Below are positions 3,157 through 57,229 of a DNA stretch of 64,000 bases, piece by piece. The stretch is from positions 18,460 to 82,459 of the forward strand of contig JAFWQC010000009.1 of the NCBI GenBank assembly GCA_017509245.1, given 5' to 3'. Source of the DNA: Clostridiales bacterium. Lineage in GTDB: Bacteria > Bacillota > Clostridia > Saccharofermentanales > Saccharofermentanaceae. Every line of letters starts with the position of its first letter. Position 1 is the first letter of the stretch. The notes under the pieces were generated by a model, which had not been told where the DNA came from, ran no database searches, and worked only from the letters and a program-made list of their open reading frames with translations. The position numbers were made by a program, and so were the translations under genes.

Positions 3157-4827
3157 ATGAACAAGACCAGGAGCCTTTATAAGGCGTTCAGCTCCAATCT
3201 TGAGATGCCAAAGCCGAACGGTGAGAAGAAGGTGAAGCTCTATAACCGTTTCGGCATGATCGCATTCATCGGGATAATGCTGCCCATATCCGTCATCGTC
3301 GGCTATATAACGTATATCCTTACGGATCTGCTCTATATGTTCGACGGCAATGCTTACGGGCTTTTATCAGAGCTTGATCTGATATCGGCTTTTGCCATGA
3401 TATTCGGTATGCCGCTCATGTTCAGCGTGCTGTTCTTTTCTTCAGATCTTAAGTTCCTGACAGCGCTTCCCGTGAAGTCCACGTCGCTTTACAAGGCAAG
3501 ATTCTGGCACACGTTCAAGGCCGAGAATGTCATGACATCAAACGTTCTTTTCGCGATATACATCGGATATTTCATAGCCTGCGCAAAGCATTCGGGACTT
3601 AAGGCGGCGCTCCATCCGGCAGCGCTTATCTCTTCAGTAATAGGGCTTTATTCTGCGCTCCTGCTGCCCCTGATCTATTGCTCGGTCATCGCAATGCTCC
3701 TGATGCTGGTATTAAGGAAGATCAAGCGCACGGATATCTATTACCACTCGTCACTTATTCTGTTTATCGTCTTTGCGGTCATGTTCCTCTTGTCTTTCAG
3801 GAGTTACGGCGCCATAAGCATGATGAACTATATCGATTCACTCGTCCTGAGCAACAACACATTTACCAGGATCTGCAATGTTTTGTTCCCGACAAACTAT
3901 CTGACCACGCTTTCCATAAGGACACACAGGATCCTTCCGCTTTCAGGCTCCGTTGCAATAACCGCGGCGCTTTATTTCCTGTCGGTCCTTACTGCTCATT
4001 TCACATATCGAAAAGGTCTCTTCGCGGCAGCAGTTATCAGCGACAGAAAACCGTCCGGAAAGATCCGCTCCGGATACGCAAGCCGCAAGGTCTTTTCGTC
4101 TCTTGTGATAAAGGAAGCCCGCGTCCTCATGAGGACGATGACATACAGGATGAACTGCGTTTATGCGAATCTCCTCTGGCCCGTGGCAGCCGTGATCTTT
4201 ATTTTCGAGGCGCCGAACTTTGAGATCCTGAAGAAGTTCTCTTATAACCTGCAGAACGGGGACGCGAAAAGCCAGGTCATCCTGTTTGCAGTTGTCATCG
4301 CAGTCTCCTTCATCGCTTCCGGCCTCAATTCCATAGCCTCGACTTCATTTACGCGCGAGGGCACGCACCTTGATATGCTTAACTACCTGCCATCCGGTCC
4401 CGGCAAACAGATCAGCGCGAAAGTCCTTATTGCCGTGCTCTTTACGCTCATTCCCGAAGTGATCGCAATCATCCCGGTGACCGTTTACCTGGGCAACGCC
4501 GCAATGCTTCCGCTCTATATCATCGTCTCTTCCGCATGCGTTCTTACCGCGACCATGATCGGTGTGATAATGGATTCGATATCGCCTTATACCGCATGGT
4601 CTGACGAACTGTCGGCTCTCCGCGGCAATCTGAACTGCTTCTTCAACCTCGCAGCCGAGATGATCGCGGCGCTCTTGACGGGCGCTTTGGCTTACGGACT
4701 CTATCTCCTGTCCGGAAGTGCCGTGCTCACGATAGCTCCGGTCTCAGTGCTACTCTTTGCAGGCTGCGCCATTCTGGTCATCTCCGGTCTTCCGCGTGTT
4801 CGAAAAAACATCGAGCTGCTGAAGTGA
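3157..4827 (+). CDS. ABC-2 type exporter permease
   Basis: About 12-14 hydrophobic segments and an SFTREG motif; GGAGG RBS before ATG 3157; adjacent to the ATPase. Confidence 0.85.
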   Translation: MNKTRSLYKAFSSNLEMPKPNGEKKVKLYNRFGMIAFIGIMLPISVIVGYITYILTDLLYMFDGNAYGLLSELDLISAFAMIFGMPLMFSVLFFSSDLKFLTALPVKSTSLYKARFWHTFKAENVMTSNVLFAIYIGYFIACAKHSGLKAALHPAALISSVIGLYSALLLPLIYCSVIAMLLMLVLRKIKRTDIYYHSSLILFIVFAVMFLLSFRSYGAISMMNYIDSLVLSNNTFTRICNVLFPTNYLTTLSIRTHRILPLSGSVAITAALYFLSVLTAHFTYRKGLFAAAVISDRKPSGKIRSGYASRKVFSSLVIKEARVLMRTMTYRMNCVYANLLWPVAAVIFIFEAPNFEILKKFSYNLQNGDAKSQVILFAVVIAVSFIASGLNSIASTSFTREGTHLDMLNYLPSGPGKQISAKVLIAVLFTLIPEVIAIIPVTVYLGNAAMLPLYIIVSSACVLTATMIGVIMDSISPYTAWSDELSALRGNLNCFFNLAAEMIAALLTGALAYGLYLLSGSAVLTIAPVSVLLFAGCAILVISGLPRVRKNIELLK

Positions 4828-37103: not shown

Positions 37104-38039
37104 TTAGTTTCTTACTATCTCTGTTGTATAAATATATTTTGGATTGACTTCAATTACACCTGAAGAGAATACTCCATTTGGCAAATAATTGAACCTTGAA
37201 GCCCCATCTAAATCTCTTCGTCTTATTGATTTAATAAGCATTTTATATAAACGAATATAGTATTTTTCTTTAGTAATTATCTCGTCATCACAATGAATGT
37301 TGATTTCTAATTTTTCTAATGGAATTTTTGAAAAATTATAAGGTGCAAATGTTAGCCAGTCTTTTTTTTGCATAAAGAAACTATGACACGTGTATGAAGT
37401 TTCTACTATAAAAGATTCATTTTTCCCAATTGGTTTATCAAATAACAACGGAATAATGATCATATTGCTTTTATCACAGATATGATCATCATCGGTTTTC
37501 ATATTAGTTTTTTGAGTAGTGCCACCACCGTAATTTATTACCTGATTTGCGGAAAATGCTAGTTTAGAATATGATGTGGATGAAGCAGTAAATAGACGAA
37601 AGAAGAAGCGGTCAAGATTCTTCTTGTTAGTGTTCTTTCCTTCAAAACGCCATTCGAATCTCATGTCGCAATCTTCATTATTATTTGAATATTCACTTCT
37701 GTAATTTACAACAGAAATATCAACAGTCGCTTTGTCTATTCTAACAGTATTTGCATACAAGTCTTTGTTTAAAAACATTTGAATAGCAGAAGTTAAATTT
37801 ACTCGCTCGTTATTCTCCAATGCTTTGATGAATGATAGTTGGCATTTGTAGTTATAAGTGAAACCAATTAGAACAAAAATAAAACATCCCTGAATAATAA
37901 CGAGGCAGGAAAGAACAATAGTATGAGGAAAATCTTTTATAAACCAGGATACGATCGTGAGTATAAACTGAATTATTGTGGCTATAAGAACTAAAAGTTC
38001 TCCAAACTTATATAACCAAGTTTCGCGAATGTTATCCAT
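37104..38039 (-). CDS. AT-rich orphan protein with N-terminal 2-TM anchor
   Basis: 311-aa ORF; visibly much more AT-rich than its neighbours; GGGGA RBS. Confidence 0.7.
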   Translation of the reverse strand: MDNIRETWLYKFGELLVLIATIIQFILTIVSWFIKDFPHTIVLSCLVIIQGCFIFVLIGFTYNYKCQLSFIKALENNERVNLTSAIQMFLNKDLYANTVRIDKATVDISVVNYRSEYSNNNEDCDMRFEWRFEGKNTNKKNLDRFFFRLFTASSTSYSKLAFSANQVINYGGGTTQKTNMKTDDDHICDKSNMIIIPLLFDKPIGKNESFIVETSYTCHSFFMQKKDWLTFAPYNFSKIPLEKLEINIHCDDEIITKEKYYIRLYKMLIKSIRRRDLDGASRFNYLPNGVFSSGVIEVNPKYIYTTEIVRN

Positions 38040-38206
38040 ATGTCCCCCATAATATTTCAATAATCAAAGTAATAAATTCATTATATCATCACTAACAAGA
38101 ATTGCTATTCATATCAAATAAAAGATATCAAAACAATTAATGGGGATTTTTAATCACCATAATAGGCAATGGTAAAATATGCAAAAAGCTATTTGGAGGA
38201 TCCATC

Positions 38207-43663: not shown

Positions 43664-43701
43664 AGAAACGGAGTGGTGAGTTCTCACTGCTCCGTTTTCT
43701 T
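43664..43701. terminator. Bidirectional terminator-like hairpin
   Basis: AAACGGAG(T)GGTGAG...CTCACTGCTCCGTTT between convergent genes. Confidence 0.65.
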
Positions 43702-45141
43702 TTGCATTTTCACACAATCGAAATTACCGCTCTTTACCACATCGTCATCTGTGTGCTGATAGCCGAGCTTCTCATAGAAATCTATTGCTTCCAGCCTGCT
43801 GTCTATCAGGATGTTGCCGTAACCCAGCTCTTTTATCCATTTCTCGGCTTCGGTGACGACGCGGCTGCCGAGTCCCTTGCCGCGGTACTCAGGAAGGACC
43901 ACGACACGGCCTAAAGTCACGCTGTCTTTATCTGTTTCGTAGAAGCGGCATGTCGCAACGGGATAACCGTCATCAAGTATGACGATATATTTTGTTCCGT
44001 CGCAGTCATGCTCATCGAATTCCTCTCTGAGCGTTATGTGATGCTGACGGTTCATTCCCTCGATACGCACCGAGTACGCACCGGCTCTCTGCCATTCGTG
44101 TTCTGCTCTTAATACTCCCATGCGTGAATTAATTGTTCTTTCCACCGATTTTTCTTCTGACTGGCCCGTATAAACTTCAAGTGCCTGTGAGTAGTAATTC
44201 CTGAGTCTTGATCTGAGTTTTCCGGGCTTCAATACGACAGCATCTTTTCCGAATCTTCGAAAATAATCATCAAGCTGAACCTCCGGCCAATCGAAGACAT
44301 AGACATCACCGTCTATCTTCGTAACCTGCGGTCTGTTCTTGACTATCAGCCTGTATTTCCTTTTTCCTGCCTCGTTAAGACGTATGAGAGCATGGATGTC
44401 AGGGGCAGCGGTGTGAGGACTTCTTGCAGCTATCGCACGGAGCCTCTCATAGAACTTCCCGTCAGTCTTAAAAGTGTCTGAAGTTACAAAAGGAGTCCTT
44501 ATTCTTGAGATCCTGAATGTTCTTGATTTTTTAGTCTTAACATCGCGGCACAGGAGATAGTTGCACTGCTCTTCCTTGGAAGGTGCGATTATGTAAGGTT
44601 CGACCGTGAAGTTGAATTCGTTGCTCGTGGATGAGAGCGACAGACGTTTATGTTCTGCTATGGCTCTTCTGATATCCGCGTAGACATCCTTGAAGATGAT
44701 CTCTTCGCGCCTGCTTCTGGGAATTGAGAGATAAGACGTGAACATATCCTTCATGTAGCCGGACAAAGACTTATCCTGAAGAAGGTTATTCTCTATGGTC
44801 TTTATGATGTTGTAAGAAGGACCGCTTACGGTAAGTGTTATAACGGCTTTGCCTCCTGTAGAAGATGATTCACCCCTTATGTAAGTGCTGATTATCTTAT
44901 CTGCGAGGGCAGCGGCATCCTTGCGCTTAATGGATCTGACGGATGCTATATCGTCAATGATTCCGCTTAAGAGTTCTTCCGAGTCCTTTCTGTACTGATC
45001 GAAGTAGTTTACGATAAGTTCCTTTAAGAAACCGTTGAGGTTTACGGAAGCATCACTCCTTGTGAATTCAAAGAGTTCTGCATCGTTTATAAGCCTTGTT
45101 CTTATGTCCTCTGAAAGGTAGATCTTATATTTCTCAGTCAT
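43684..45141 (-). CDS. WYL-domain (plus WCX-like) transcriptional regulator fused to a C-terminal GNAT domain
   Basis: RAI...VEPYII...NYLLC...RTFRISRI (WYL); FGKDAVVLKP (WCX-like); GRVVVLPEYRGKGLG...FYEKLGY (GNAT). Confidence 0.82.
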   Translation of the reverse strand: MTEKYKIYLSEDIRTRLINDAELFEFTRSDASVNLNGFLKELIVNYFDQYRKDSEELLSGIIDDIASVRSIKRKDAAALADKIISTYIRGESSSTGGKAVITLTVSGPSYNIIKTIENNLLQDKSLSGYMKDMFTSYLSIPRSRREEIIFKDVYADIRRAIAEHKRLSLSSTSNEFNFTVEPYIIAPSKEEQCNYLLCRDVKTKKSRTFRISRIRTPFVTSDTFKTDGKFYERLRAIAARSPHTAAPDIHALIRLNEAGKRKYRLIVKNRPQVTKIDGDVYVFDWPEVQLDDYFRRFGKDAVVLKPGKLRSRLRNYYSQALEVYTGQSEEKSVERTINSRMGVLRAEHEWQRAGAYSVRIEGMNRQHHITLREEFDEHDCDGTKYIVILDDGYPVATCRFYETDKDSVTLGRVVVLPEYRGKGLGSRVVTEAEKWIKELGYGNILIDSRLEAIDFYEKLGYQHTDDDVVKSGNFDCVKMQKKTEQ

Positions 45142-45265
45142 TAGATAACTCCTGTTTGGGGTCGTGATTTTCGATGAATATAACGTAATTATACAATAAA
45201 TCCTGATAAAAGTGGGGTTATAAATTGAAATGATTCTGCATCTTTAAGAACCCAACCGGCAGGGC

Positions 45266-45271
45266 TATCAT
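45266..45271 (+). promoter_or_regulatory. Putative -10 element for the ncRNA-DUF2828-rtcB transcript
   Basis: TATCAT 17 nt upstream of element 1; only a weak -35 (TTTAAG). Confidence 0.4.
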
Positions 45272-45287
45272 AAGGCTGTAACGTGAT

Positions 45288-45368
45288 AAGACACTTACAG
45301 CAAATATTCAGGCGGTCTCTGCGGGGGTTCGAATCCCCCCTTTGAAAGAACCCTTCGGGGAGTGTCTT
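45288..45368 (+). ncRNA. Candidate Y-RNA-like/tRNA-mimic RNA 1
   Basis: 8-bp terminal stem AAGACACT/AGTGTCTT, TACAGCAA motif, T-arm GGGGG-TTCGAAT-CCCCC and CCC-TTCG-GGG tetraloop hairpin. Confidence 0.65.
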
Positions 45369-45388
45369 GGAAATATGTTACGGAAATA

Positions 45389-45450
45389 AAGGTGCATACA
45401 GCAAGTAGCCTCGTTCAGTAATCCCCGGGGTGGAGCCCGGGGGGCACCTT
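45389..45450 (+). ncRNA. Candidate Y-RNA-like RNA 2
   Basis: 7-bp terminal stem AAGGTGC/GCACCTT, the same TACAGCAA motif, and an internal CCCCGGG-GTGGAG-CCCGGGG hairpin. Confidence 0.6.
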
Positions 45451-45471
45451 GTAAAAAAGGAGATAATGAAA

Positions 45472-46932
45472 ATGTTGAAATTTTTGAAGAAGGAAGCTAA
45501 TCAGACATTCACTGAGAACGGTGCTGTCACATTCATGAGCACAGAGTCTTTCTGCCTTGATCTTTTCGCTACGGCAGGCGCACTCCGCCAGGCTTCAGAC
45601 GAAGAGATCATCAGCAGATTCATCAAGGCATTTGCAGAAGACAGGGACCTTGCCGTTAAGACACTCTTCTTTGCAAGAGATATCAGAGGCGGTCTGGGTG
45701 AGAGAAGATTCTTTAAGGTTATCCTGAAGTATCTTGCAGAAGCAGAACCTGAAACGGTTATAAAGAATATCGCTAACATTGCCGAATACGGCAGATATGA
45801 CGACATTCTTGTACTTATAGGCACACCTTGTGAGCAGGCTGCGCTGGAATACATCAGATCCACGCTTGCCGGCGATATACAGGCACTTAATGCCGGCGGC
45901 GAAGTGTCCCTGCTCGCAAAGTGGCTCCCTTCCGTAAATGCTTCAAGCGAAGCAACGGTAAGAACTGCAAGAAAGATTGCAAAAGTCATTGGCATGTCCG
46001 AAGCCGAGTACAGAAAGACATTGTCTTCCTTAAGAGCTCAGATAAAGATTATCGAGAACAACTTAAGGGAAAAGGACTACACTTTCGAGTATGAGAAGCA
46101 GCCTTCAAAGGCGCTCTACAAATACAGAAGAGCCTTCATAAGAAACGATATCGAAAGATACTGCAAGTTCATGGACAGGGCTTCAGCAGATCCGTCCTTA
46201 CTGAACACCGGCACACTTACACCTTACGATGTCATCGCACCTGTAATCAGGCGTGCCGACATAAGCAAACAGGAGAGAAAGTCCATGAACGTTACATGGA
46301 ATGCTTTGGAGGACTTCACGGGTTCTGACAACGCTCTTGCCGTTGTAGACGGTTCCGGTTCAATGTATTTTCTCGGCGAACCCTGCGCTGCAGCAGTTGC
46401 GCAGTCTCTGGGTATCTACTTTGCAGAGCACAACAAGGGTGCATTTAAAAACCACTTCATAACTTTCTCCACCAATCCCAGACTGGTCGAGATAAGGGGC
46501 AGAGATATTGTCGAGAAGGTCAGATACTGCATGAGCTTTAACGAAGCAAGCAATACTGATATCGGAAAGGTTTTCGAGCTCATCCTGAAAACTGCAGTAA
46601 AGAACAGACTGAAGCAGAAGGATATGCCTGAGAAGATATACATCATATCCGACATGGAGTTTGACTACTGCGCTGCTAACGCAGACGAAACAAACTTCGA
46701 GCATGCGAAGAAAAGATTTGCATTATACGGCTACAGACTGCCTCAGATAATCTTCTGGAACGTCAGAAGCCGCAATGCTCAGCAGCCCGTCAAAATGAAT
46801 GAACAGGGCGCAGCGCTCGTATCAGGCTGCAGTCCTCAGATCTTCAAGATGCTAAAGGAAGGCAATCTTGAGCCCTACAGGTTCATGATGAGCGTTCTTA
46901 AGTCTGAAAGATATGAGAATATCGCTGCTTAA
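45472..46932 (+). CDS. DUF2828 family protein (TROVE/Ro60-like helical domain + vWA/MIDAS domain)
   Basis: TENGA, ARDIRGGLGER, LLAKWLPS, MIDAS VDGSGSM, FITFS, ISDMEFD and IIFWNV motifs; AAGGAG RBS. Confidence 0.85.
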   Translation: MLKFLKKEANQTFTENGAVTFMSTESFCLDLFATAGALRQASDEEIISRFIKAFAEDRDLAVKTLFFARDIRGGLGERRFFKVILKYLAEAEPETVIKNIANIAEYGRYDDILVLIGTPCEQAALEYIRSTLAGDIQALNAGGEVSLLAKWLPSVNASSEATVRTARKIAKVIGMSEAEYRKTLSSLRAQIKIIENNLREKDYTFEYEKQPSKALYKYRRAFIRNDIERYCKFMDRASADPSLLNTGTLTPYDVIAPVIRRADISKQERKSMNVTWNALEDFTGSDNALAVVDGSGSMYFLGEPCAAAVAQSLGIYFAEHNKGAFKNHFITFSTNPRLVEIRGRDIVEKVRYCMSFNEASNTDIGKVFELILKTAVKNRLKQKDMPEKIYIISDMEFDYCAANADETNFEHAKKRFALYGYRLPQIIFWNVRSRNAQQPVKMNEQGAALVSGCSPQIFKMLKEGNLEPYRFMMSVLKSERYENIAA

Positions 46933-46995
46933 GAAATCCAGGTCCCCGGTGCAATATAATCAAAGCCGGGGACTTTTTTAAGAAAGGAAAAGACT

Positions 46996-48210
46996 ATGGA
47001 ATATATAGAAATACAGGGAAAGGTCAACACTGCCATCTGCTATGCGAAGGTGGTTGAAGAAGAGGCCATAGAACAGATCAGACGTATGTGTGACTATCCT
47101 ATGACTGAGGGCTCGAAAATACGTATCATGCCTGACGTTCACTCCGGTAAGGGCTGCACGATAGGAACAACAATGACCATCACTGACAAGGCTGTTCCCA
47201 ACGTCGTAGGTGTCGATATCGGCTGCGGTATGTACACGGTTGATCTCGGCAAGGGTGACATCGATCTCATGCTGCTCGATGCAACAGCGCATTTTATTCC
47301 TTCCGGCATGAATGTATGGGAAGGAAGACAGGAGAGATTTGACTTGACGGGTCTTAAGTGTTTCAGGGAACTCAAGGATACAAGAAGACTTGAAAGATCC
47401 TTAGGTACGTTAGGAGGCGGAAACCACTTCATAGAAGTCGATGTTTCTTCCGACGGAACAAAGTATCTTGTAATTCACTCCGGATCGAGAAACCTCGGAA
47501 AGCAGGTTGCCGAATATTACCAGAAGCTCGCAATAAACCTCAACAGAGGTTATGGTGATTATCTTGAGAAAAGAGATGAGATCATAAGAACCTACAAGGA
47601 GCAGGGAAGACAGGAAGAGATCCAGGAAGCATTAAAGCAGCTTCACTGGAAGGTTTTCGGAGGCGAGACAAGCATACCCGAAGATCTCTGTTACTTAACA
47701 GGTAAGTATCTTGAAGATTATCTCCGCGATGTTGAGATCTGCCAGGCATTCGCTAAGCGCAGCCGTGAGAAGATGGCTGAGATCCTTATTGAAAAGACAG
47801 GACTTTCGGCAGGTGATTCCTTCCACACTATCCATAACTACATCGATACTGATGAGATGATCTTAAGAAAGGGTTCGATCGCTGCTCACGAGGGGGAGAA
47901 GGTCCTTATCCCGATCAACATGAGAGACGGTTCCGTCCTTGCAATAGGAAAGGGCAACCCTGAATGGAACTATTCCGCGCCTCACGGTGCCGGACGCATC
48001 ATGTCCAGAACAAAGGCTAAGAACACTCTTTCTATGGACGATTACAGGGAAGCGATGAAGGATGTCTTCACTACATCAGTAAACAGTCAGACATTGGATG
48101 AGGCTCCGATGGCTTATAAGTCACTGGACGACATCATCGATGTTATCTCGGAATCCGTTGACGTAATCGAGGTTTTGAAGCCCATATATAACTTCAAGGC
48201 TTCAGAGTGA
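46996..48210 (+). CDS. rtcB: RtcB family RNA ligase
   Basis: MPDVH, GVDIGCG, GGGNHFIE, HSGSR, HNY, HGAGR and DEAPMAYK motifs. Confidence 0.96.
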   Translation: MEYIEIQGKVNTAICYAKVVEEEAIEQIRRMCDYPMTEGSKIRIMPDVHSGKGCTIGTTMTITDKAVPNVVGVDIGCGMYTVDLGKGDIDLMLLDATAHFIPSGMNVWEGRQERFDLTGLKCFRELKDTRRLERSLGTLGGGNHFIEVDVSSDGTKYLVIHSGSRNLGKQVAEYYQKLAINLNRGYGDYLEKRDEIIRTYKEQGRQEEIQEALKQLHWKVFGGETSIPEDLCYLTGKYLEDYLRDVEICQAFAKRSREKMAEILIEKTGLSAGDSFHTIHNYIDTDEMILRKGSIAAHEGEKVLIPINMRDGSVLAIGKGNPEWNYSAPHGAGRIMSRTKAKNTLSMDDYREAMKDVFTTSVNSQTLDEAPMAYKSLDDIIDVISESVDVIEVLKPIYNFKASE

Positions 48211-49048: not shown

Positions 49049-49227
49049 ACGGATAAGGGAGACAACGCATGGAATTGTTAAAAGGAAGCATTTGATCAGG
49101 CTTTTTCGTGTCCCGGCACTTTTTTAGACAAAATTCTAAAATATGTGAGTAAACCCGGATTTTAGTGCAATAAAATAATGTGCAGAAGGAAGTTGGATAA
49201 TAATTGCTTTTTCCCGAGGGGCTTATT

Positions 49228-50853
49228 ATGGGGTTTATTGAGAAGATCAGGGGGTTATCCCGTAAGAACAGGATTATCATAATCTCGGCGCTGGCAGCTG
49301 TTGTCGTGGCAGCTGTGGTAATTATTCTTCTTTCAAGAAATAATTATCTTGCTAAGACAATGAGGCTTTTGCGTGTCGAAGGCACGGTAAATATCGAGTC
49401 TTCCACAGGCGGAACAAAGCCCGCTGCCGACAATATCAGATTCCAGTCAGGCGACGCCCTCAATACCGGTTCTGACGGTCTTGCTTCAGTAGGCCTTGAT
49501 GACACGAAAATTATCACTCTGCAAAATGACAGCCGTGCCGAATTCAAGAAGAACGGCAAACAGCTTGAATTAAACCTCACCAAGGGTGCGGTCTTCTTTA
49601 ACGTAACCGAGAAGCTCAAGCCTGAAGAGACATTTGAGATAAAGACATCCACGATGACAGCCGGTATCAGAGGAACATCCGGCATGATCTACTATGATGA
49701 GGCCGAGGGAAGGGATTCCATTATCGTTACTGACGGTTCCGTTGAAGTAACGGCAGTAAACCCGACTACAGGTGAAGTAAAGACTGCAAAGGTTGAAGGT
49801 GGTCAGAGGATAAAGGTCTATCTTTATACAGAAACGACAGAGAGCCACGACACAGTCGAATTCTTCCTTGATGAGATAACAGAAGAAGAGCTTCCTGATT
49901 TCTCCGTACAGATGATCGCTGAGAATGAAGAACTCTTGAACAGGGTCTGTGAATACACAGGCTGGGACAAAGAGACATTAAAGGAACTGGTACAGGATAT
50001 AGAAAGCGGGGAAGCGGAAGGTGAGGAGATCGAACTGACGCCTACTCCTGAACTGACGGAAGTGCCGGAAGAAACGCCTGCGCCTGACAATATAGCGGAT
50101 ATTACACCGTCTCCGACACCGACAGGCACGCCGTCACCGACGCCTGAACCGACAGCAACTACAAAGCCGGGAGCTACGGTAACACCAAGCCCTGCAGCAA
50201 CGGCAACACCCAAATTGACAAATACTCCTACTTTGACGCCGGTTCCTACGGCTACATCGACATCCACATTGACGCCGACACCTTCAAACACATCCACGCC
50301 GACAAACACGCCGACAAATACTTCGACGCCGACAAATACGCCTACACTGATCCCGGGTGGTCCGGCTCTCCCTGCGGGTTATTATCAAACTTCGTTATGG
50401 GGAGTTACATACGGCGGTTCTACCGTTTATATAGCCAAACTTAATGATTCAGGCAAAGCAAAGAGTTTCGGGCAGTCTCCTCGTCAATACAGAGGTTACG
50501 AGAATGGTCACTGGTATGACCTCATCCTTCATGATCTTGGAGATTCGAGCTATTACGAACTTGAAACTTTCAATGGAGTTTATTATTCAGATCAGTATTT
50601 GTCAGGTCCGGGCTATCCGTCTTACAGCATGGAACTTCCTTCCGGCTATGAAGAATATATTTGGGACCAAAGATACAACGGCAAGGATATATATATATGC
50701 CGTACTCCCATGAATTCTTCGTACGATTATCTTGGCTATGATGACATATGGTTTGATATTTATAATGAACAAAATGGTAATAACGAGTACTTCTATTACA
50801 CAGGCTCAGACCAGATATATTATTATGGTCCTATCCCTGTGGTGACAAATTAG
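49228..50853 (+). CDS. FecR-domain membrane-anchored protein 1, Pro/Thr stalk and two Tyr-rich repeats
   Basis: N-terminal TM; L..GAVFF...[11 protein letters not shown] FecR-like motif; TP repeats. Confidence 0.85.
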
Positions 50854-50968
50854 CGGTATCAGGAGAATAACAGACACTGATTTATTGATATAATTGACAA
50901 ATTCAGAAATCCTTGAAGACGTGCTAAAATATTAAGTTGCAAAAACACGATTGAGGAAGGCTGAAGTT

Positions 50969-52192
50969 ATGGGATTCTTAGATGGACTCACCTATTTGCC
51001 GCGCAAAAATAAGATAATCATTCTTGCTGCCATTGCTGTAGTTGTAGTAGCAACGGTTGTGGGATGTGTTATTTTCGCGAACACAAGATACACGGCAACA
51101 TCAATGAGACTCCTTCGAGTAGAAGGTTCAGTCAAGGTTATCGATTCCAACGGAAAGAATAAATTCGTCAAAAAGAATGCAAGATTCCAGTCGGGCGAGT
51201 CGATCACCACGCTTTCGAATGGTTTGGCTACCGTAGGACTTGATGAGGGCAAGTCAGTTACACTGCAGCCCAGGACCACGGCTTGCTTCACGAAGTTTAA
51301 CAAGCATATCGAACTCAAGCTGACCGAGGGTGCCATTTTCTTTGAAGTAACCGACAAGCTTAATGATGATGAGAACTTCTTCATTAAGACTGCAACCATG
51401 ACTGCCGATATCAAAACAGCATCAGGTTATATCTATGTCGATGAGGAGGGTCATGATTCGATCATCGTTACGGATGGAGAAGTTATCGTTACTTCCATAA
51501 ATGCTGATTCCGGTGAGACCAAATATACCAAGGTTCAGGGCGGACAGAGGATGACGGTCATCCTTTATTCCGACAGAGCTGAGGATTCGATCGTGTTTGA
51601 TTCCCAAGATATCGGAGCTGAAGAGCTTCCCGCACTGCCCCTTAAGATGATCACAGAGAATGAGGAGCTTTTAAATAAGGTTTGCGGATCTACAGGCTGG
51701 GACAAGCAAGTGCTTTTGGATATCGTAGCCGATAAACCGGTTGAGACAGAACCTGTATCGATAGAAGAACTCACACCTGTTCCCACACCGGAAGCAACGT
51801 CTGATGTATCTTCGGAGACGACTTCTGAGGAAGTGACAGAGGAGGCTACACCTACTCCGGAACCTGAATCCACTACTGAGGCCACATCCAAGCCGGCGGA
51901 TAACAAAAAGCCGACTCCGAAGCCGACATCGAAGCCTAAGGCGACGACTGCGCCTACTAAGAAGGCGACTAATACACCGACATTAACACCGACGACCACG
52001 CCTTCGAATTCGCCGACAAACACACCTACGAATACACCTACCAGCACTCCGACGAATACACCGTCAAATACACCTTCGAATACGCCTTCGAATACACCTT
52101 CGAATACACCTTCGAATACACCGAGCACGGCGCCTTCTGAGGATGATCCCAACAATACGTCCGGAGGCTCCGGAGATGAAGGAAACGGTTGA
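50969..52192 (+). CDS. FecR-domain protein 2 (divergent), Pro/Thr stalk, no distal domain
   Basis: Homologous N-terminal domain (TATMTADIKTA); TPSN repeats run almost to the C-terminus. Confidence 0.85.
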   Translation: MGFLDGLTYLPRKNKIIILAAIAVVVVATVVGCVIFANTRYTATSMRLLRVEGSVKVIDSNGKNKFVKKNARFQSGESITTLSNGLATVGLDEGKSVTLQPRTTACFTKFNKHIELKLTEGAIFFEVTDKLNDDENFFIKTATMTADIKTASGYIYVDEEGHDSIIVTDGEVIVTSINADSGETKYTKVQGGQRMTVILYSDRAEDSIVFDSQDIGAEELPALPLKMITENEELLNKVCGSTGWDKQVLLDIVADKPVETEPVSIEELTPVPTPEATSDVSSETTSEEVTEEATPTPEPESTTEATSKPADNKKPTPKPTSKPKATTAPTKKATNTPTLTPTTTPSNSPTNTPTNTPTSTPTNTPSNTPSNTPSNTPSNTPSNTPSTAPSEDDPNNTSGGSGDEGNG

Positions 52193-52273
52193 TGCCTTGA
52201 TCGCAAGGCTTAAAAACGGCTGCCTGATTTGATATAATAAAATAGTTGATTCAGAAGTTATAAGGCAGAAGTT

Positions 52274-53683
52274 ATGAGTTTATTCGACAAGATCAAGAAT
52301 TTAACCCGAAGAAATAAGATAATCGTAACTGTTATAGCGGCGGCTGTTGTTACAGCCGTCGTTATTTGTATATTGCTGGCACGGAAAGGGTATCTGGCAA
52401 CGACCATGAGACTCCTCCACGTAGAGGGAACGGTTAACATCGAAGACGCCGGTGGCGGCAGCAAGCCTGCTTCCGGAAACATCAGATTCCAGTCAGGAGA
52501 TGCCCTCAATACAGGTGCTGACGGTCTGGCATCCGTAGGTCTTGATGATTCCAAGATAGTTACGCTCCAGAACAACAGCAGGGCCGAATTCACAAAGAAC
52601 GGAAAGAAACTCGAACTTAAGCTCACAAAGGGTGCGGTCTTCTTCAACGTAACGGAAAAACTCAAGCCCGATGAGACCTTTGAGATAAAGACATCCACAA
52701 TGACTGCCGGTATCAGAGGCACATCAGGCATGATCTATTACGATGAGACTGAGGGAAGGGATTCCATTATCGTTACTGACGGTACCGTTGAGGTAACCGC
52801 GGTCAACCCGACTACCGGTGAAGTTAAGCATGCCAAGGTGGAAGGCGGACAGAGGATCAAGGTCTATCTTTATAATGAGAATACCGAGAATCACGATTCC
52901 GTAGAATTCTATCTTGATGAGATAACAGAAAAAGAACTTCCTGATTTCTCCGTTCAGATGATCGCAGAGAATGAGGATCTCTTAAACAGGGTCTGTGAAT
53001 ACACCGGTTGGGATAAAGAGACATTGAAAGAACTTGTTAAAGATATTGTCAGCGGAGAGGCTGAGGGTGAAGAGATCGAACTGACTCCGACTCCGGAACC
53101 TCTTGATACACCGACACCTTCACCGGCACCGTCTGTGACACCGGCACCGCCGTCGATTTCACCGACACCGTTTGTGACGCCGGCACCGCCTGCTGACCCG
53201 CCGCTTGATGTGCCTGAGGCACCGGCCAATCCGACGAATACGCCTACTAACACGCCGACGAATACGCCGACTGTGACGTCATCGCCGACATCCACAATTA
53301 CGAATACGCCTACTAACACGCCGACCATTACGCCTACTAACACATCGACGAACACACCGACCACTACGCCGTCGGACATGCTGACCATTACGCCGACGAA
53401 TACATCTACTAACACGCCGACTAATACGCCGACAGAAGTCCCGTCGACCACACCGGGTCCTGAGATCCCGTCCGGAGCCTGGGAATATGTATCTGTTCCT
53501 GAGAAGGGAATCTACATTTGCATGAGTCAGTCAAGCGGCGGTTCAGACCGTTATTACGGATATATCGGCGATACATGGGAGTATCTGCGCACTGAGAACG
53601 ATACCGGTGCCGGAGTCAGGAAGTTCTATTATACTGATGACGGCGGAAATGTTATCGTGTACTATACGGAACCGCTGAATTAA
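52274..53683 (+). CDS. FecR-domain protein 3, Pro/Thr stalk and one Tyr-rich repeat
   Basis: FecR region nearly identical to proteins 1 and 4. Confidence 0.85.
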
Positions 53684-53831
53684 ACTGCGGATGAGAGGAA
53701 CTGACAGCAGAAGAAATCAACAGCTGATATTATGGGGAGCTTTGCATTTCAGGTGAGCAAAAAACGGCTGTAATGCAATTAAATTTAGGATAGTCAATAT
53801 TTTTGGGTTATACATCAAGGGAGGGTGTTGT

Positions 53832-55439
53832 ATGAGCTTTATTGACAAACTAAAGAAGATGTCCTTAAAGAGCAAGATTATCTGCGGAGCGGCCGCTGTG
53901 GCTGTTATTGCAATTGCAGTTGTCTGCATCGTTCTCGGCAGAAACGGTTATCTGGCTTCTACAATGAGGCTGCTCCGCGTTGAAGGAACAGTCAGTATTG
54001 AGGATTCTTCCGGCGGTACCAAACCTGTTACCAATAACATCAGGTTCCAGTCAGGTGATGCTTTGAATACCGGTGAGGACGGCCTTGCTTCAGTAGGACT
54101 TGATGATACAAAGATCGTCACCCTTCAGAACAGCAGCCGTGCTGAATTCAAGAAGAACGGCAAACAGCTTGAGCTTAAGCTCACAAAGGGCGCCGTATTC
54201 TTCAACGTAACTGAGAAGCTCAAGCCTGATGAGACATTCGAGATAAAGACATCTACAATGACTGCCGGCATCAGAGGCACATCAGGCATCATCTATTACG
54301 ATGAGGAAGCACAGAGGGATTCACTTATCGTAACTGACGGTATGGTTGAAGTCACGGCTGTTAATCCGGAGACGGGCGAAGTTAAGCATGCAAAGGTTGA
54401 AGGCGGTCAGAGGATCAAGGTCTACCTGTATTCTGACAGTGACGATTCCCATGACAGCGTCGAGTTCTATCTTGATGAAGTAACTGAAGAAGAACTCACT
54501 GATTTTACACTTCAGAATATCGTTGAGAACAAGGAGCTCATGAACAGGGTCTGTGAATACACGGGCTGGGATGAAGAGAAGCTCAAAGAACTCGTCAGCA
54601 GTATTACGAGCGGCGAGGTGGAAGGACAGGAGATCGAACTGACACCTACTCCCGAACCGACAGAAGAAGGTGAAGATACACCGACGCCTCCGCCTGCCAA
54701 CATAGCGGACGAGACGCCGACACCGCCTGCGACACCTCCTGCAACGGGAACTCCGGTTGCCACACCGAAGCCGACTGTTTCCGCAACACCTACAACTAAG
54801 CCGACATCAACTCCGGCAGGAACGGCTACGCCGTCACCTCTGCCTACAGCACCTCTGACGTTGACTTCATCACCGTCGCCGACAGATGCTGTTGAATACG
54901 AATATGAGTACATCGTTAGGAATAAGACTTTCAATGGCGGCACTGTTACCATACGTGCACACATCGAAAATGAAAAGCCGGTATATGAAGGCCTGCTTTC
55001 GAACGGTAATTGGGATAAACTCACTTATGAAGAATCCGAAGAAGGAAACTTTACGATCTACAGATACTATTCTACAACCGGTTCTGTATATTACGAGTAC
55101 AGTGTTGAGAAGGAACAGCCGATTATTACTACCCATCAATCCGATATGACCGTAGGAACTGAGCCTGAACCCCCGTCAGGGTATTCGAAGACCTCCTGGT
55201 GCTGGGATAAGCGCAATGATTACTTTGACCATATCTTTATTTGTCAGAGTAATTCGGCAGACGGCGGCCTTAAAGGATATATAGACGGAAGAGGATGGGT
55301 CGATCTTACCGGAAAGAGAGTTGAAAACATAAACTATGCCGGATTAATGATCAATTACTATTATGATGGGGACAAATTCTATTACCATCGAGAGACTCCG
55401 TCTACTGAATTGTATGATTACGAATGGACACAAACATGA
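53832..55439 (+). CDS. FecR-domain protein 4, Pro/Thr stalk and two Tyr-rich repeats
   Basis: FecR region nearly identical to proteins 1 and 3; stop codon overlaps the cyclase start (ATGA). Confidence 0.85.
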   Translation: MSFIDKLKKMSLKSKIICGAAAVAVIAIAVVCIVLGRNGYLASTMRLLRVEGTVSIEDSSGGTKPVTNNIRFQSGDALNTGEDGLASVGLDDTKIVTLQNSSRAEFKKNGKQLELKLTKGAVFFNVTEKLKPDETFEIKTSTMTAGIRGTSGIIYYDEEAQRDSLIVTDGMVEVTAVNPETGEVKHAKVEGGQRIKVYLYSDSDDSHDSVEFYLDEVTEEELTDFTLQNIVENKELMNRVCEYTGWDEEKLKELVSSITSGEVEGQEIELTPTPEPTEEGEDTPTPPPANIADETPTPPATPPATGTPVATPKPTVSATPTTKPTSTPAGTATPSPLPTAPLTLTSSPSPTDAVEYEYEYIVRNKTFNGGTVTIRAHIENEKPVYEGLLSNGNWDKLTYEESEEGNFTIYRYYSTTGSVYYEYSVEKEQPIITTHQSDMTVGTEPEPPSGYSKTSWCWDKRNDYFDHIFICQSNSADGGLKGYIDGRGWVDLTGKRVENINYAGLMINYYYDGDKFYYHRETPSTELYDYEWTQT

Positions 55440-57229
55440 AAAAACGGACGAGAGAAATATTAATCGCATTATCCTGGGCACTTGTTATCACGGTGCTCTG
55501 CGGTCTGGGTGTTTTCAGAAGTCCTGAATTATGGCTTGAAGACACTTTATACCAGCAGCCTGTATATGTGCCCGGCGACATTATCGTAATCGGTATCACC
55601 GATGAGGATTTTGATGAGTTCGGTCCTTATTATTCCTGGGACAGAACTGTTTATGCCAGGGTTCTTGAAGCGCTTGCATCTGACCCTGATAATAAGCCGG
55701 CAGTAGTCGTAATGGACGTTCTTTTCGATGGCGAGACAGATAAAGAAAAAGATTCCAGACTCGCATCTGCGGCGGGGGAACTCAATGTAGTTGTCGCTAC
55801 CGAGGCAAAGATCGGCACCGAGAGGATTTTCGGAACCGCATCAACGATATATGAAGATGACTATGCGGTACTGGATTACATAGAGCCGTTTGATGAACTG
55901 AAGAATGCTACAACACAGGGCTTCATGAACACGATGTATGACGAGGACGGAGTTATCCGCCATTCGGCTCTGTATCTCGAACCCGGCGGCAATCGCGTTT
56001 ACTCGATGCCTTATGTGGGGGCAAAGCTTTATGCTCAGCAGCAGGGCTTTGATATTGAGATGCCTCCGACGGACGCAAGAGGCTGGTTCTATGTGCCTTT
56101 CTCTGCCCAGCCCGGTGATTTCTATGATGATATTTCCTTAAGTGATGTTATCAACGGTGAATTCAAACCGGAGTTTTTTGCAGACAAACTCGTCGTTATC
56201 GGACCTTATGCTTCCGGTCTACAGGACGCTTTCATCACTGCGATCGACAGAGGACGCATGATGTATGGTGTTGAATATCATGCAAATGTCATGCAGTGCC
56301 TTTTGGACGGCAGATATAAGAGGGAAGCTTCAGACTTTCTTCAGCTGGCGATACTCTTCGTTATCTGCTTTGCTTTCTTCTATTTCTGCAGCAATAGAAA
56401 ACTCCGCGTTGTCGTACCTGCATTTGCAGTATTGGCAGGTCTTGCAATAGGTGCAGCCATGCTGATCTACGAGGCCGGATACATCATTCATGCACTGTGG
56501 ATACCTGTAGGTCTCCTAATCCTGTTTGTCGTATGTGTGGCAAGAAATTACATCAACGCTGCCATCGCAAAGCAGAACGTCACAAGGACATTCGAGAGAT
56601 ATGTTGCGCCGAATATCGTCGGCGAGATATTGAAGGAAGGTACGGATGCGCTGAAGCTTGGCGGCAAGACTGTCGATATCGCAGTTCTTTTCGTTGATGT
56701 CAGAGGCTTCACTACGATGTCGGAGAGACTGTCTCCTGAGGTTGTCGTCAAGATCCTCAACAGATATCTTACGATGGCAAGCGCATGCGTTGATGACACC
56801 AAGGGTACTGTCGACAAGTTCGTCGGCGACGCCATGATGGCCTTCTGGGGTGCACCCATCGATGACGATGATCCGGTTTACCATGCAGCAGTCACGGCTC
56901 TCGGTATTGTCGAGGGCGCGAAAAAGATTTCTGCCGAGTTAAAGGAAGAGATCGGCGAAGAGCTCAACGTCGGTGTCGGTATCAACTACGGACCGGCTGT
57001 CGTCGGCAATATGGGCTCTGAAAAAAGAATGGACTACACTGCCATCGGCGATACGGTCAACACGTCGGCAAGACTTGAGGCCAATGCGCCCGGCGGCACT
57101 GTATATATCAGCCGTTCCTGCGCTGACAGACTTGAGGGAAGAATGAAGTTCGAACCTCTGGATCACCCGATCAAGCTCAAGGGTAAGGCTGACGGATTTG
57201 AAATATTGAAACTGATCGGACCAGTATAA
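55436..57229 (+). CDS. CHASE2-domain class III adenylate cyclase
   Basis: CHASE2 motifs (WDR, DVLF, DEDGVIR, GVEYHAN), three TMs, then FVDVRGFT, DKFVGD and YTAIGDTVNTSARLE. Confidence 0.93.
   Translation: MKKRTREILIALSWALVITVLCGLGVFRSPELWLEDTLYQQPVYVPGDIIVIGITDEDFDEFGPYYSWDRTVYARVLEALASDPDNKPAVVVMDVLFDGETDKEKDSRLASAAGELNVVVATEAKIGTERIFGTASTIYEDDYAVLDYIEPFDELKNATTQGFMNTMYDEDGVIRHSALYLEPGGNRVYSMPYVGAKLYAQQQGFDIEMPPTDARGWFYVPFSAQPGDFYDDISLSDVINGEFKPEFFADKLVVIGPYASGLQDAFITAIDRGRMMYGVEYHANVMQCLLDGRYKREASDFLQLAILFVICFAFFYFCSNRKLRVVVPAFAVLAGLAIGAAMLIYEAGYIIHALWIPVGLLILFVVCVARNYINAAIAKQNVTRTFERYVAPNIVGEILKEGTDALKLGGKTVDIAVLFVDVRGFTTMSERLSPEVVVKILNRYLTMASACVDDTKGTVDKFVGDAMMAFWGAPIDDDDPVYHAAVTALGIVEGAKKISAELKEEIGEELNVGVGINYGPAVVGNMGSEKRMDYTAIGDTVNTSARLEANAPGGTVYISRSCADRLEGRMKFEPLDHPIKLKGKADGFEILKLIGPV

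Follow-up and report, generated by a model that had tools for sequence, protein, structure and literature searches.

In bacteria, Ro60 (Rsr) proteins, which combine TROVE and vWA domains, are accompanied by small Y RNAs, and the function of these Ro/Y-RNA particles in RNA-repair operons is still an open question in the field. Y RNAs carry the Ro-binding motif GNCGAAN0-1G near the 5′ end, and the tRNA-like domain of Deinococcus radiodurans Yrn1 differs in orientation from that of YrlA (PMC4201824); that survey, Chen 2014, searched TROVE-annotated genomes only. Hughes 2020 proposes YrlA as a competitive inhibitor of an anticodon nuclease and lists decoy and decay roles of Ro/Y-RNA particles as untested (PMC7790460). 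For phages, ROT/TROVE proteins with a tRNA-like partner were reported from jumbo phages (Iyer 2021; PMC7824862), a Ro60-like protein is mentioned in passing (PMC7765460), and phiRo60 with Yrl1/2 forms PNPase complexes (PMC12135203). Here we analysed a 64,000-nt stretch of DNA (hereafter the window) from a gut Clostridiales bacterium (Saccharofermentanaceae; GCA_017509245.1, JAFWQC010000009.1, positions 18,460-82,459, forward strand) and describe in it a DUF2828 gene preceded by two RNA-like elements, which we call handles. The DUF2828 system is a real, uncharacterised variant of the Ro/Y-RNA kind.

Across the locus, a WYL-containing open reading frame (ORF) on the minus strand (45141-43684) is followed by a non-coding gap with the two elements (45288..45369 and 45389..45451, plus strand), a DUF2828+DUF7788 gene (45472..46932, plus strand) and, 63 bp 3′ of it, rtcB (46996..48210, plus strand), which encodes an intact RtcB RNA ligase. 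An original prediction, made from the sequence alone, had described this divergent arrangement, and the ORF and domain check confirmed it. Of the outcomes named beforehand as refuting that prediction, those open to computation, lack of a Ro-like fold and lack of a conserved linkage with rtcB or the elements, were not observed. The DUF2828 gene most likely starts at ATG 45472, after AAGGAG (45457-62), and its protein cluster includes members of 486 aa.

A class of predicted handle RNAs follows DUF2828

Both elements have a terminal stem of 7-9 bp that starts with AAG and ends with CTTG, and in both TACAGCAA stands unpaired beside the 5′ strand (45296-303 and 45397-404). Element 1 consists of the AAGACAC stem, TACAGCAA, a cargo with a tRNA T-arm (45323-45339) and GTGTCTTG, and element 2 of the AAGGTGC stem, TACAGCAA, a GC hairpin as cargo and GCACCTTG. 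The class as a whole has the layout AAG-stem, CAGCAA, variable cargo, stem-CTTG, and is strand-specific and covarying. Since the folding energy of the single elements was not significant (z -1.1 and -1.3), the reality of the elements rests on comparative evidence, for which we assembled the best 80 genome loci and the best 80 viral loci with DUF2828. With six genome loci and one viral locus left out because they had too little DNA, 68 of 74 genome loci and 49 of 79 viral ones showed a sense handle within 400 nt upstream of DUF2828, compared with none in antisense and about one per set in shuffled sequence; within -1600/+600 nt of the gene the counts were 75/80 and 62/80. Stems were also located without requiring any pairing, with AA, CAGCRA and a TTG further downstream as the only anchors; their five inner positions were then Watson-Crick paired in 192 of 253 distinct elements, a count inflated by related sequences, against 22.5 ± 4.3 (maximum 37) after the 5′ strands had been dealt anew. 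G-C/A-U swaps occurred at each of these five positions, with 52 different 5′ strands involved. Handles measure 49-130 nt (5th-95th percentile) and form arrays of 1-9 copies with a median spacer of 10 nt. At 53/75 genome loci the last one ends no more than 60 nt before the DUF2828 start, the median distance being 38 nt; 27 loci have handles downstream of the gene, and four have downstream ones only.

The distribution of handles was then compared with that of the neighbouring genes. By tblastn, rtcB and the WYL gene of the window are absent from all 80 viral loci, of which 62 nevertheless have handles. Among 36 genomes of the genus, the handle pattern was found in 17 of the 18 with DUF2828 and in one of the 18 without it; as the pattern was derived from the same loci, the informative half is its absence from the DUF2828-negative genomes. 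No handle was present in any of eight classical Rsr/TROVE loci or at the second rtcB locus of the window's genome. The handle follows DUF2828 rather than rtcB or WYL. Three of the four cultured phages examined carry 3-4 handles each (Alf5 four, UPIE three, and P100); in phages, tRNA genes are interspersed with the handles.

Two pattern matches were judged to be chance, the one in G022 lying inside an ORF on the opposite strand and the one in G056 having no closing stem. A complete orphan handle away from DUF2828 was observed on another contig of G017 (L234:2573), and the second pattern match of G006 (L235:~2612) is a handle 5′ half only, whose cargo begins almost identically and which lies just behind a second rtcB-type operon. 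One distant genus (L238, L239, L241, L243) has DUF2828 and a single T-loop handle at the same chromosomal site, with no WYL or rtcB in view and mobile-element-like genes adjoining; L243 retains broken remnants only.

Known RNA families did not account for the handles. In Rfam, the T-arm of element 1 was scored as a tmRNA fragment (E 7e-4), and no family reached its gathering score. The YrlA model RF02553 had no match at the window region or at eight DUF2828 loci, and gave five weak matches on the eight TROVE loci (E 2e-5 to 0.07, all below gathering). A separate class of RNA partners for DUF2828, as the original prediction had supposed, is supported by the lack of a YrlA match and by a linkage conserved in 68/74 genome loci. 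Its description of the elements as tandem Y-like RNAs held in that the 5′ and 3′ ends pair in a terminal stem, and failed in that there is no YrlA motif or RF02553 match and the cargo is modular and tRNA-derived. Our literature search found no description of the handle RNA class, and none of the papers listed for DUF2828 or DUF7788 concerned this system, judging by the listing.

The DUF2828 protein is predicted to share the Ro60 fold

PF11443 and PF25043 were the only domain matches of the DUF2828 protein; Pfam TROVE (PF05731) gave none, the only profile match being remote. The AlphaFold2 model, built with 144 homologues, had a predicted local distance difference test score (pLDDT) of 96.5, and the top 11 among the Foldseek matches listed were all Ro60/Rsr/TROVE proteins (best E 1.7e-9). 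VIA-align superimposed the model on Ro60 (2i91) with Z 24.1 and a root-mean-square deviation of 3.9 over 417 aligned residues spanning 8-467, compared with Z 11 for lone vWA domains; the structural identity to Ro proteins is 10-16%. The residues of the MIDAS (adhesion site dependent on metal ions), D294-x-S296-x-S298, T363 and D395 with numbering from 45469, are invariant or at least 90% conserved in the 144 homologues. The model predicts a Ro60-type helical ring closed by a vWA domain with an intact MIDAS, so that both the DxSxS motif and the Ro-like fold anticipated from the sequence were recovered.

Sequence comparison was less direct. A single-protein search of the PDB found only alphaRep repeats and no link to Ro60, and a profile search reached TROVE entries only at E 1.5; the link therefore rests on the fold and on profile-profile comparison. 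The latter matched DUF2828 to TROVE proteins of the same phylum with P 92.6 and E 4.6e-7 over 388 columns at 15% identity, the TROVE alignment having eight rows of which one (L230, plus strand) is probably an antisense frame of a real gene, that is, a noise row. In this alignment the conserved SLLAKWLPS stretch of DUF2828 falls on the TROVE stretch ending in HPKP, which we take to be part of the Y-RNA-binding surface of Ro60; the residues differ, as expected from a different RNA motif. The protein had been proposed to be a functional analogue of Ro60. The likeness to Ro stands, and the restriction to analogy does not, since the profile match suggests distant homology: DUF2828 and Ro60 look like remote homologues and not just analogues. 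PHROG 850, 'RNA-binding protein', matches the protein with E 4e-129, and mycobacteriophage annotations already read 'Ro-like RNA binding protein', so that the Ro likeness is present in annotations. The protein-level link may already be in print, and DUF2828 may have been filed under ROT/TROVE before. DUF2828 family matches were found in 711 of 50,697 phage records and 4 of 72,556 plasmids, and giant-virus proteins match the model by fold.

Handle cargoes are enriched in tRNA parts

We next asked what the handles enclose. T-arms were present in 54/194 genome and 20/140 viral cargoes, compared with 0.1 in shuffled sequence, and anticodon-type arms in 51/194 and 28/140, against 4.2 and 3.0 expected. 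Hairpin loops identical to real anticodon loops, the reference being 34 such loops of the window's genome with Lys-UUU absent from it, occurred in 33/194 genome and 14/140 viral cargoes, compared with 1.2 and 0.9 in shuffled sequence and 4 and 1 in antisense. Asn, Ser, Tyr, Met and Phe loops lead this count, and Lys-UUU was seen in the separate count of arms; several of these are known targets of anticodon nucleases (colicin E5, PrrC, VapC). Where both tRNA parts are present, D precedes T in 22 of 23 genome cargoes, and the reverse order was seen in 4/6 viral cargoes and in the phages Alf5 and UPIE. The order in genome cargoes means that the handle stands at the acceptor-end position, and some phage cargoes have the YrlA order. 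For the tRNA-like domain order T-acceptor-D, the window itself offers a T-arm only. The T-loop of element 1 is kept in 16 of 18 same-genus loci. The cargo of element 2 is in relatives usually an anticodon-like arm, often Asn GUU, and an anticodon-like 7-nt loop on at least 3 bp occurs in 14 of the 18 loci plus one ambiguous case.

ARAGORN called five tRNAs inside handles at 4 of 17 loci scanned, and the one that was aligned has a poorly paired acceptor stem. Because such calls fall on handle-enclosed tRNA bodies (L084:3494-3566 and 3704-3776; L070:2850-2922; L058:3824-3895; L078:3888-3961), some annotated tRNAs near DUF2828 may be misannotated. We also observed tRNA-like genes of phages that keep the acceptor, D and T arms intact and have an insert of 50-65 nt where the anticodon arm would be (L157:2312-2428, 2525-2640 and 2739-2861; L141:2528-2653; L165:2355-2473; L187:4723-4835). 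In L157 these genes alternate with handles and share an insert motif, and the insert of L165 contains a CAGCAA handle half; they are possibly a further RNA type of the DUF2828 system. Some genomes have large tRNA gene arrays just 3′ of the cassette (L070:5203-6991; L027:8132-9202).

rtcB is a common passenger of a mobile cassette

The RtcB of the window (PF01139, E 1.6e-54) retains D47, H49, C77, N143, H144, H161, H280, H330 and K401, all invariant in 37 neighbours; the D, C, N and H residues among them make up the metal-binding and guanylylation motifs. rtcB lies directly 3′ of DUF2828 in 14 of 16 same-genus loci with downstream DNA, in 43 of 76 wider loci and in none of the 80 viral loci. 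The claim that rtcB is part of the system thus stood as far as a frequent neighbour goes (43/76 genome loci), and gave way to an optional role in view of the viral loci. RlaP is present at 9 of 80 genome loci, and such RNA-repair neighbours speak for the decoy-and-repair reading given below. Viral neighbours include Thg1 and RNA ligase (each in 5/80) as well as Band-7 and vault-like proteins, and no nuclease gene recurs among the neighbours in bacterial loci. DUF2828 was present in 18 of the 36 genus genomes and in 8 of 401 phylum genomes searched, and most loci of the genus have different flanking genes. WYL, handles and DUF2828 make up the core, rtcB is a common passenger, and the whole is a mobile cassette of four parts.

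A WYL1-type regulator and its candidate promoter

The WYL-containing ORF encodes 485 aa, with WYL (PF13280) at aa 153-216, a weak WCX match and a GNAT part at aa ~341-485, which the original prediction had left unmentioned. Its regulator core (44161..45141, minus strand) comprises two ribbon-helix-helix (RHH) units, a WYL barrel and WCX; the model of these 327 aa (pLDDT 85) shows two beta-alpha-alpha units followed by the WYL barrel and the WCX domain. WYL1 (6OAW) was its best match by Foldseek (E 5e-18), VIA (Z 21.7 over 315 residues) and hidden Markov model (E 5.7e-22). Close copies of the WYL gene occur in 18/18 DUF2828-positive and 0/18 DUF2828-negative genus genomes, and among 65 wider loci with 2.5 kb of DNA, 57 have WYL upstream, as either the divergent window type or a pair of another type. 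A WYL regulator had been predicted, and its conservation at DUF2828 loci upholds this; the details changed, in that it is a WYL1-type RHH protein, fused to GNAT in some strains only.

The GNAT acetyltransferase part (43684..44121, minus strand; PF00583, E 4.5e-17) is in frame with WYL in the window strain. Members of 485, 332 and 145 aa share one 90% cluster; in a listing that covers 40 of its 70 members, 9 of 15 are fused, three end at 332 aa and two are GNAT alone, and no fused GNAT was found in the 18 same-genus loci. We rejected GNAT as a part of the system: it is a neighbouring gene, separate (145 aa) in close strains and joined by read-through in some strains only.

Between the WYL gene and element 1 lies a candidate WYL operator or activator-dependent promoter block (45158..45253), with GGGGTC (45158-63), GGGGTT (45214-19), GCATCT (45238-43) and AACCC (45249-53). 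In 15 aligned loci the block is largely invariant and keeps a fixed distance to a TAnnAT box, which in the window is a candidate -10 box TATCAT (45266..45271, plus strand; T, A, A and T invariant in the 15 loci) with no -35 box of consensus type. A conserved block likewise replaces the -35 box, at -26, in SiwR and PafBC promoters (PMC10693628). The motif switches with the type of WYL gene: GGGGYY..GCWTCT was present in 19/25 loci with the window type and 0/36 with the other type, and TCGCAVCTTTTT in 33/36 loci with the other type and 0/25 with the window type; 5 of 13 loci with no WYL in view also carry TCGCAVCTTTTT. Shared ancestry of the cassette could produce this switch without binding. 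Elsewhere in the genome the promoter motif had no further clear copy, loose patterns giving 5-11 matches. Taken together, the WYL protein probably regulates the operon.

RspWYL1 prefers single-stranded RNA and has an arginine that disfavours double-stranded DNA (PMC6547453). Its RNA-binding arginines (RHH2 R131/R133) align to Val/Ala and the invariant Thr102 of the window regulator, and Thr at the position of the clashing Arg fits DNA binding. Most characterised WYL regulators sense single-stranded DNA (PMC10693628), and no WYL-RtcB link was found in the available part of PMC4012209.

WYL genes also stand at classical Ro loci. Three of them (L227, L229 and L233) have a YrlA-like RNA and a divergent WYL gene, two with RlaP, so that two Ro families fill the same slot. 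That a WYL protein would take over from RtcR as the damage sensor was part of the original prediction; the conserved linkage at DUF2828 agrees with a WYL regulator there, and the arrangement is not unique to DUF2828, as 3 of 8 TROVE loci have WYL. WYL control of Ro operons appears to extend beyond DUF2828.

RNA libraries and strain variation

Of 24 RNA runs listed, four were aligned to the locus. One size-fractionated small-RNA library yielded a 171-nt contig identical to 45292-45462, with a depth of 18.7, which covers both elements, and one contig inside DUF2828 with a depth of 3.9. We treat the 171-nt contig as a hint only, since a contig reveals neither the ends nor the strand of an RNA, genes cannot be ranked by depth, and there was no DNA control; stretches left uncovered in the RNA runs were not taken as evidence. 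A contig of another strain (X1), which runs across the divergent promoter, may be DNA and was used for strain variation only. It has 11 substitutions in 875 nt, seven of which, together with a deletion, fall in 45304-45331, 28 nt of cargo 1.

Other features of the window

Downstream of the DUF2828 gene, an inverted repeat of 8 bp with a 16-nt loop and a T-run (46942..46979, plus strand) precedes rtcB as a possible partial terminator; it was recognised by reading the sequence and was not called by the terminator scan. Similar repeats occur in L024, L036 and L038 and are absent in L027, L028, L032 and L035. At the other end of the locus, a hairpin terminator with a 15-pair stem and T-run (43665..43698) separates the WYL-GNAT gene from a convergent ABC-permease gene. 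The genome is 79% complete; its second rtcB sits on another contig, and at this completeness it has no match to PF05731 (TROVE). PADLOC returned generic WYL models only and nothing for DUF2828 or RtcB, and ARAGORN found no tRNA in the window. Elsewhere in the window, 49204-55439 encodes four tandem paralogous membrane-anchored proteins with Pro/Thr-rich linkers, the first with a confirmed FecR domain, followed at 55424-57229 by an ORF that, from reading its sequence, resembles an adenylate/guanylate cyclase. An orphan-like 318-aa ORF of low GC appearance at 37104-38060 (minus strand) has a sub-threshold DUF7359 match only.

Proposed function and alternatives

We lean towards a Ro-type particle, induced by damage, whose main function would be to present parts of tRNA, as decoys or docking mimics, next to a tRNA ligase. 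Nucleic-acid fragments would bind the WYL domain and switch on one transcript starting about 10 nt before element 1, which would be cut to handle RNAs of 50-130 nt that DUF2828 binds and stabilises. That DUF2828 binds the handle, through terminal stem and CAGCAA, is highly probable from their co-occurrence. The particle would present tRNA parts to anticodon nucleases or other tRNA-directed enzymes; while tRNA is under attack, the cargo, which cannot be charged, would likely act as decoy or docking mimic, and the real tRNA would be spared, or broken tRNA held for RtcB to re-join.

The same components could also form a degradation or maturation machine like the Deinococcus RYPER, in which the cargo tethers a nuclease or effector and damaged structured RNA is cleared, not shielded. 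The fold is the same, phiRo60-Yrl1/2 is found in PNPase complexes (PMC12135203), the tRNA-like domain of D. radiodurans Yrn1 departs from the YrlA orientation (PMC4201824) as the D-before-T order in 22/23 genome cargoes does, and half of the cargoes have no tRNA parts. However, such a machine leaves unexplained the specific copies of anticodon loops and the concentration of 7 of 11 strain substitutions within 28 nt of cargo, and no nuclease gene recurs beside the bacterial loci; we consider it rather unlikely. If the handles were instead a cis leader through which DUF2828 binds its own mRNA and limits its translation or transcription, with no free small RNA, the short distance of the last handle to the start (at most 60 nt in 53/75 genome loci) and the RNA contig joining both elements to the ribosome-binding site would follow naturally. 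Yet the ribosome-binding site is unpaired (probability 0.83-0.96), arrays reach nine copies, handles lie downstream in 27 loci and only there in four, a complete one stands on another contig (G017), phage handles lie among tRNA genes, and a leader needs no tRNA cargo. A leader as the whole explanation is accordingly improbable, and autoregulation by DUF2828 via the handles may be a side use.

We give as little credence to the cargo as a tripwire, in which cleavage of the mimic by an invading anticodon nuclease yields a fragment that activates the WYL1-type regulator, until RtcB seals the mimic again and thereby ends the response. The preference of RspWYL1, the closest solved relative of the regulator, for single-stranded RNA (PMC6547453), the activation of Salmonella RtcR by tRNA fragments, the enrichment of anticodon loops and the covariation of motif and regulator would suit it, but viral loci carry the same RNAs without the window WYL, most characterised WYL regulators sense single-stranded DNA (PMC10693628), the RNA-binding arginines of RspWYL1 are not kept and element 2 of the window has no anticodon arm. 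Finally, weak folding z-scores and some cargoes that score as tRNA genes might suggest that the elements are repeats at the DNA level, or tRNA genes in decay, and do nothing as RNA. This is very improbable, since they are strictly sense-oriented, have compensatory pairs at all five inner stem positions, share an invariant single-stranded motif and conserve T-loops and anticodons, and since a small-RNA library yielded a contig that covers them.

Several observations weigh against the decoy or docking-mimic particle that we favour. The loci compared are related to each other and their counts are not independent events, and no handle was seen within 2.5 kb in Vibrio phage nt-1. Ninety-seven of 194 genome and 96 of 140 viral cargoes are without any tRNA piece, and the window's own element 2 has a GC hairpin in place of an anticodon arm. 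rtcB is missing beside DUF2828 in 2/16 same-genus and 33/76 wider loci, and three genomes of the genus that lack DUF2828 have close rtcB genes. As the arginines of RspWYL1 are not kept, its ligand cannot be transferred to the window WYL. The 171-nt contig spans both elements and comes from one library without DNA control, its ends and strand indeterminable, and in the other strain a substitution at 45445 breaks a pair of handle 2 and one at 45160 alters the first GGGGT site.

A broader synthesis, which we put forward as doubtful speculation, would make DUF2828 the core of a second, widespread Ro-type particle for programmable display of tRNA mimics. The ring would read one invariant handle, and the swappable cargo (elbow, anticodon arm or acceptor-less tRNA body) would be tuned against anticodon nucleases; a cleaved mimic would be the alarm for an RNA-sensing WYL1-type factor, phages would use the RNAs as counter-defence, and dictyostelid Class I RNAs would be a eukaryotic branch. 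A single, sharply defined handle and natural swaps of anticodon cargo make the decoy idea directly testable, and phages carrying handle RNAs include an Escherichia coli K-12 phage (Alf5) and a Mycobacterium smegmatis phage (UPIE). If true, these ideas would add an abundant uncatalogued RNA class, some copies of which ARAGORN calls tRNAs. Phages would then likely have a counter-defence against anticodon nucleases, WYL1-type proteins would act as transcription factors, and the Class I RNAs of social amoebae, so far unexplained, would gain a candidate family of partners.

Comparison with known systems

On the side of the regulator, PafBC, DriD and SiwR use a winged helix-turn-helix, not RHH. The window regulator resembles RspWYL1 (6OAW) in its two RHH units, WYL barrel and C-terminal domain. 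RspWYL1, in contrast, is described as a Cas13d accessory that disfavours double-stranded DNA (PMC6547453), whereas the window regulator stands beside a Ro/RtcB operon and has Thr for the clashing Arg; no cas gene is present among the ORFs at 36-56 kb of the window, and no Cas13d search of the genome was made. With SiwR/PafBC it shares a divergent, local position and a conserved block at about -40 to -23 that replaces the -35 box (PMC10693628).

The RNAs resemble the Class I RNAs of dictyostelids (RF01414) in the short terminal stem, AAG start, variable centre and similar length, and in an 11-nt motif, unpaired and adjoining the 5′ strand, with T3, C6, C9, A10 and A11 (PMC7919456). Element 1 has all five of these positions, at 45293-45303, and element 2 has four, lacking T3. 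Class I RNAs differ in being reported as unique to dictyostelids and in their direct partner, the RRM protein Rnp1A (PMC7919456). Among 15 RF01414 matches with E<=10 in five genomes, none lies at a handle or exceeds the cut-off, the model had no match at the window region or at the eight DUF2828 loci, and the likeness holds for features, not by Rfam score.

D. radiodurans Rsr-Yrn1-PNPase (RYPER) and Thermus phage phiRo60-Yrl1/Yrl2 share the terminal stem with an adjoining unpaired motif and a tRNA-like module (PMC4201824, PMC12135203); in the phage (phiLo), two RNAs also lie directly upstream of the Ro gene. Unlike DUF2828, phiRo60 belongs to a different protein family (9KOP, Z 15, versus Z 24 for vertebrate Ro60), its RNAs have the motif CGAA, not CAGCAA, and the PNPase link is theirs. 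The Salmonella rsr-yrlBA-rtcBA operon under RtcR is similar in that rtcB is often a neighbour and control lies with a dedicated ligand-sensing regulator; it differs in using the CARF/sigma54 RtcR where the window has WYL at a sigma70-type -10 box, and neither a CARF/AAA+ sigma54 RtcR nor rtcA is among the ORFs of the window locus. Bacterial Ro60/Rsr itself is matched by the Ro-type ring and vWA/MIDAS fold of the DUF2828 model, and its Y RNAs by tandem small RNAs with a 5′-3′ stem and tRNA-like parts on the same strand beside the gene. The DUF2828 system departs from it in the RNA motif, ACAGCAA here versus GNCGAAN0-1G, without a match to RF02553, and in an interchangeable cargo that includes isolated anticodon arms.

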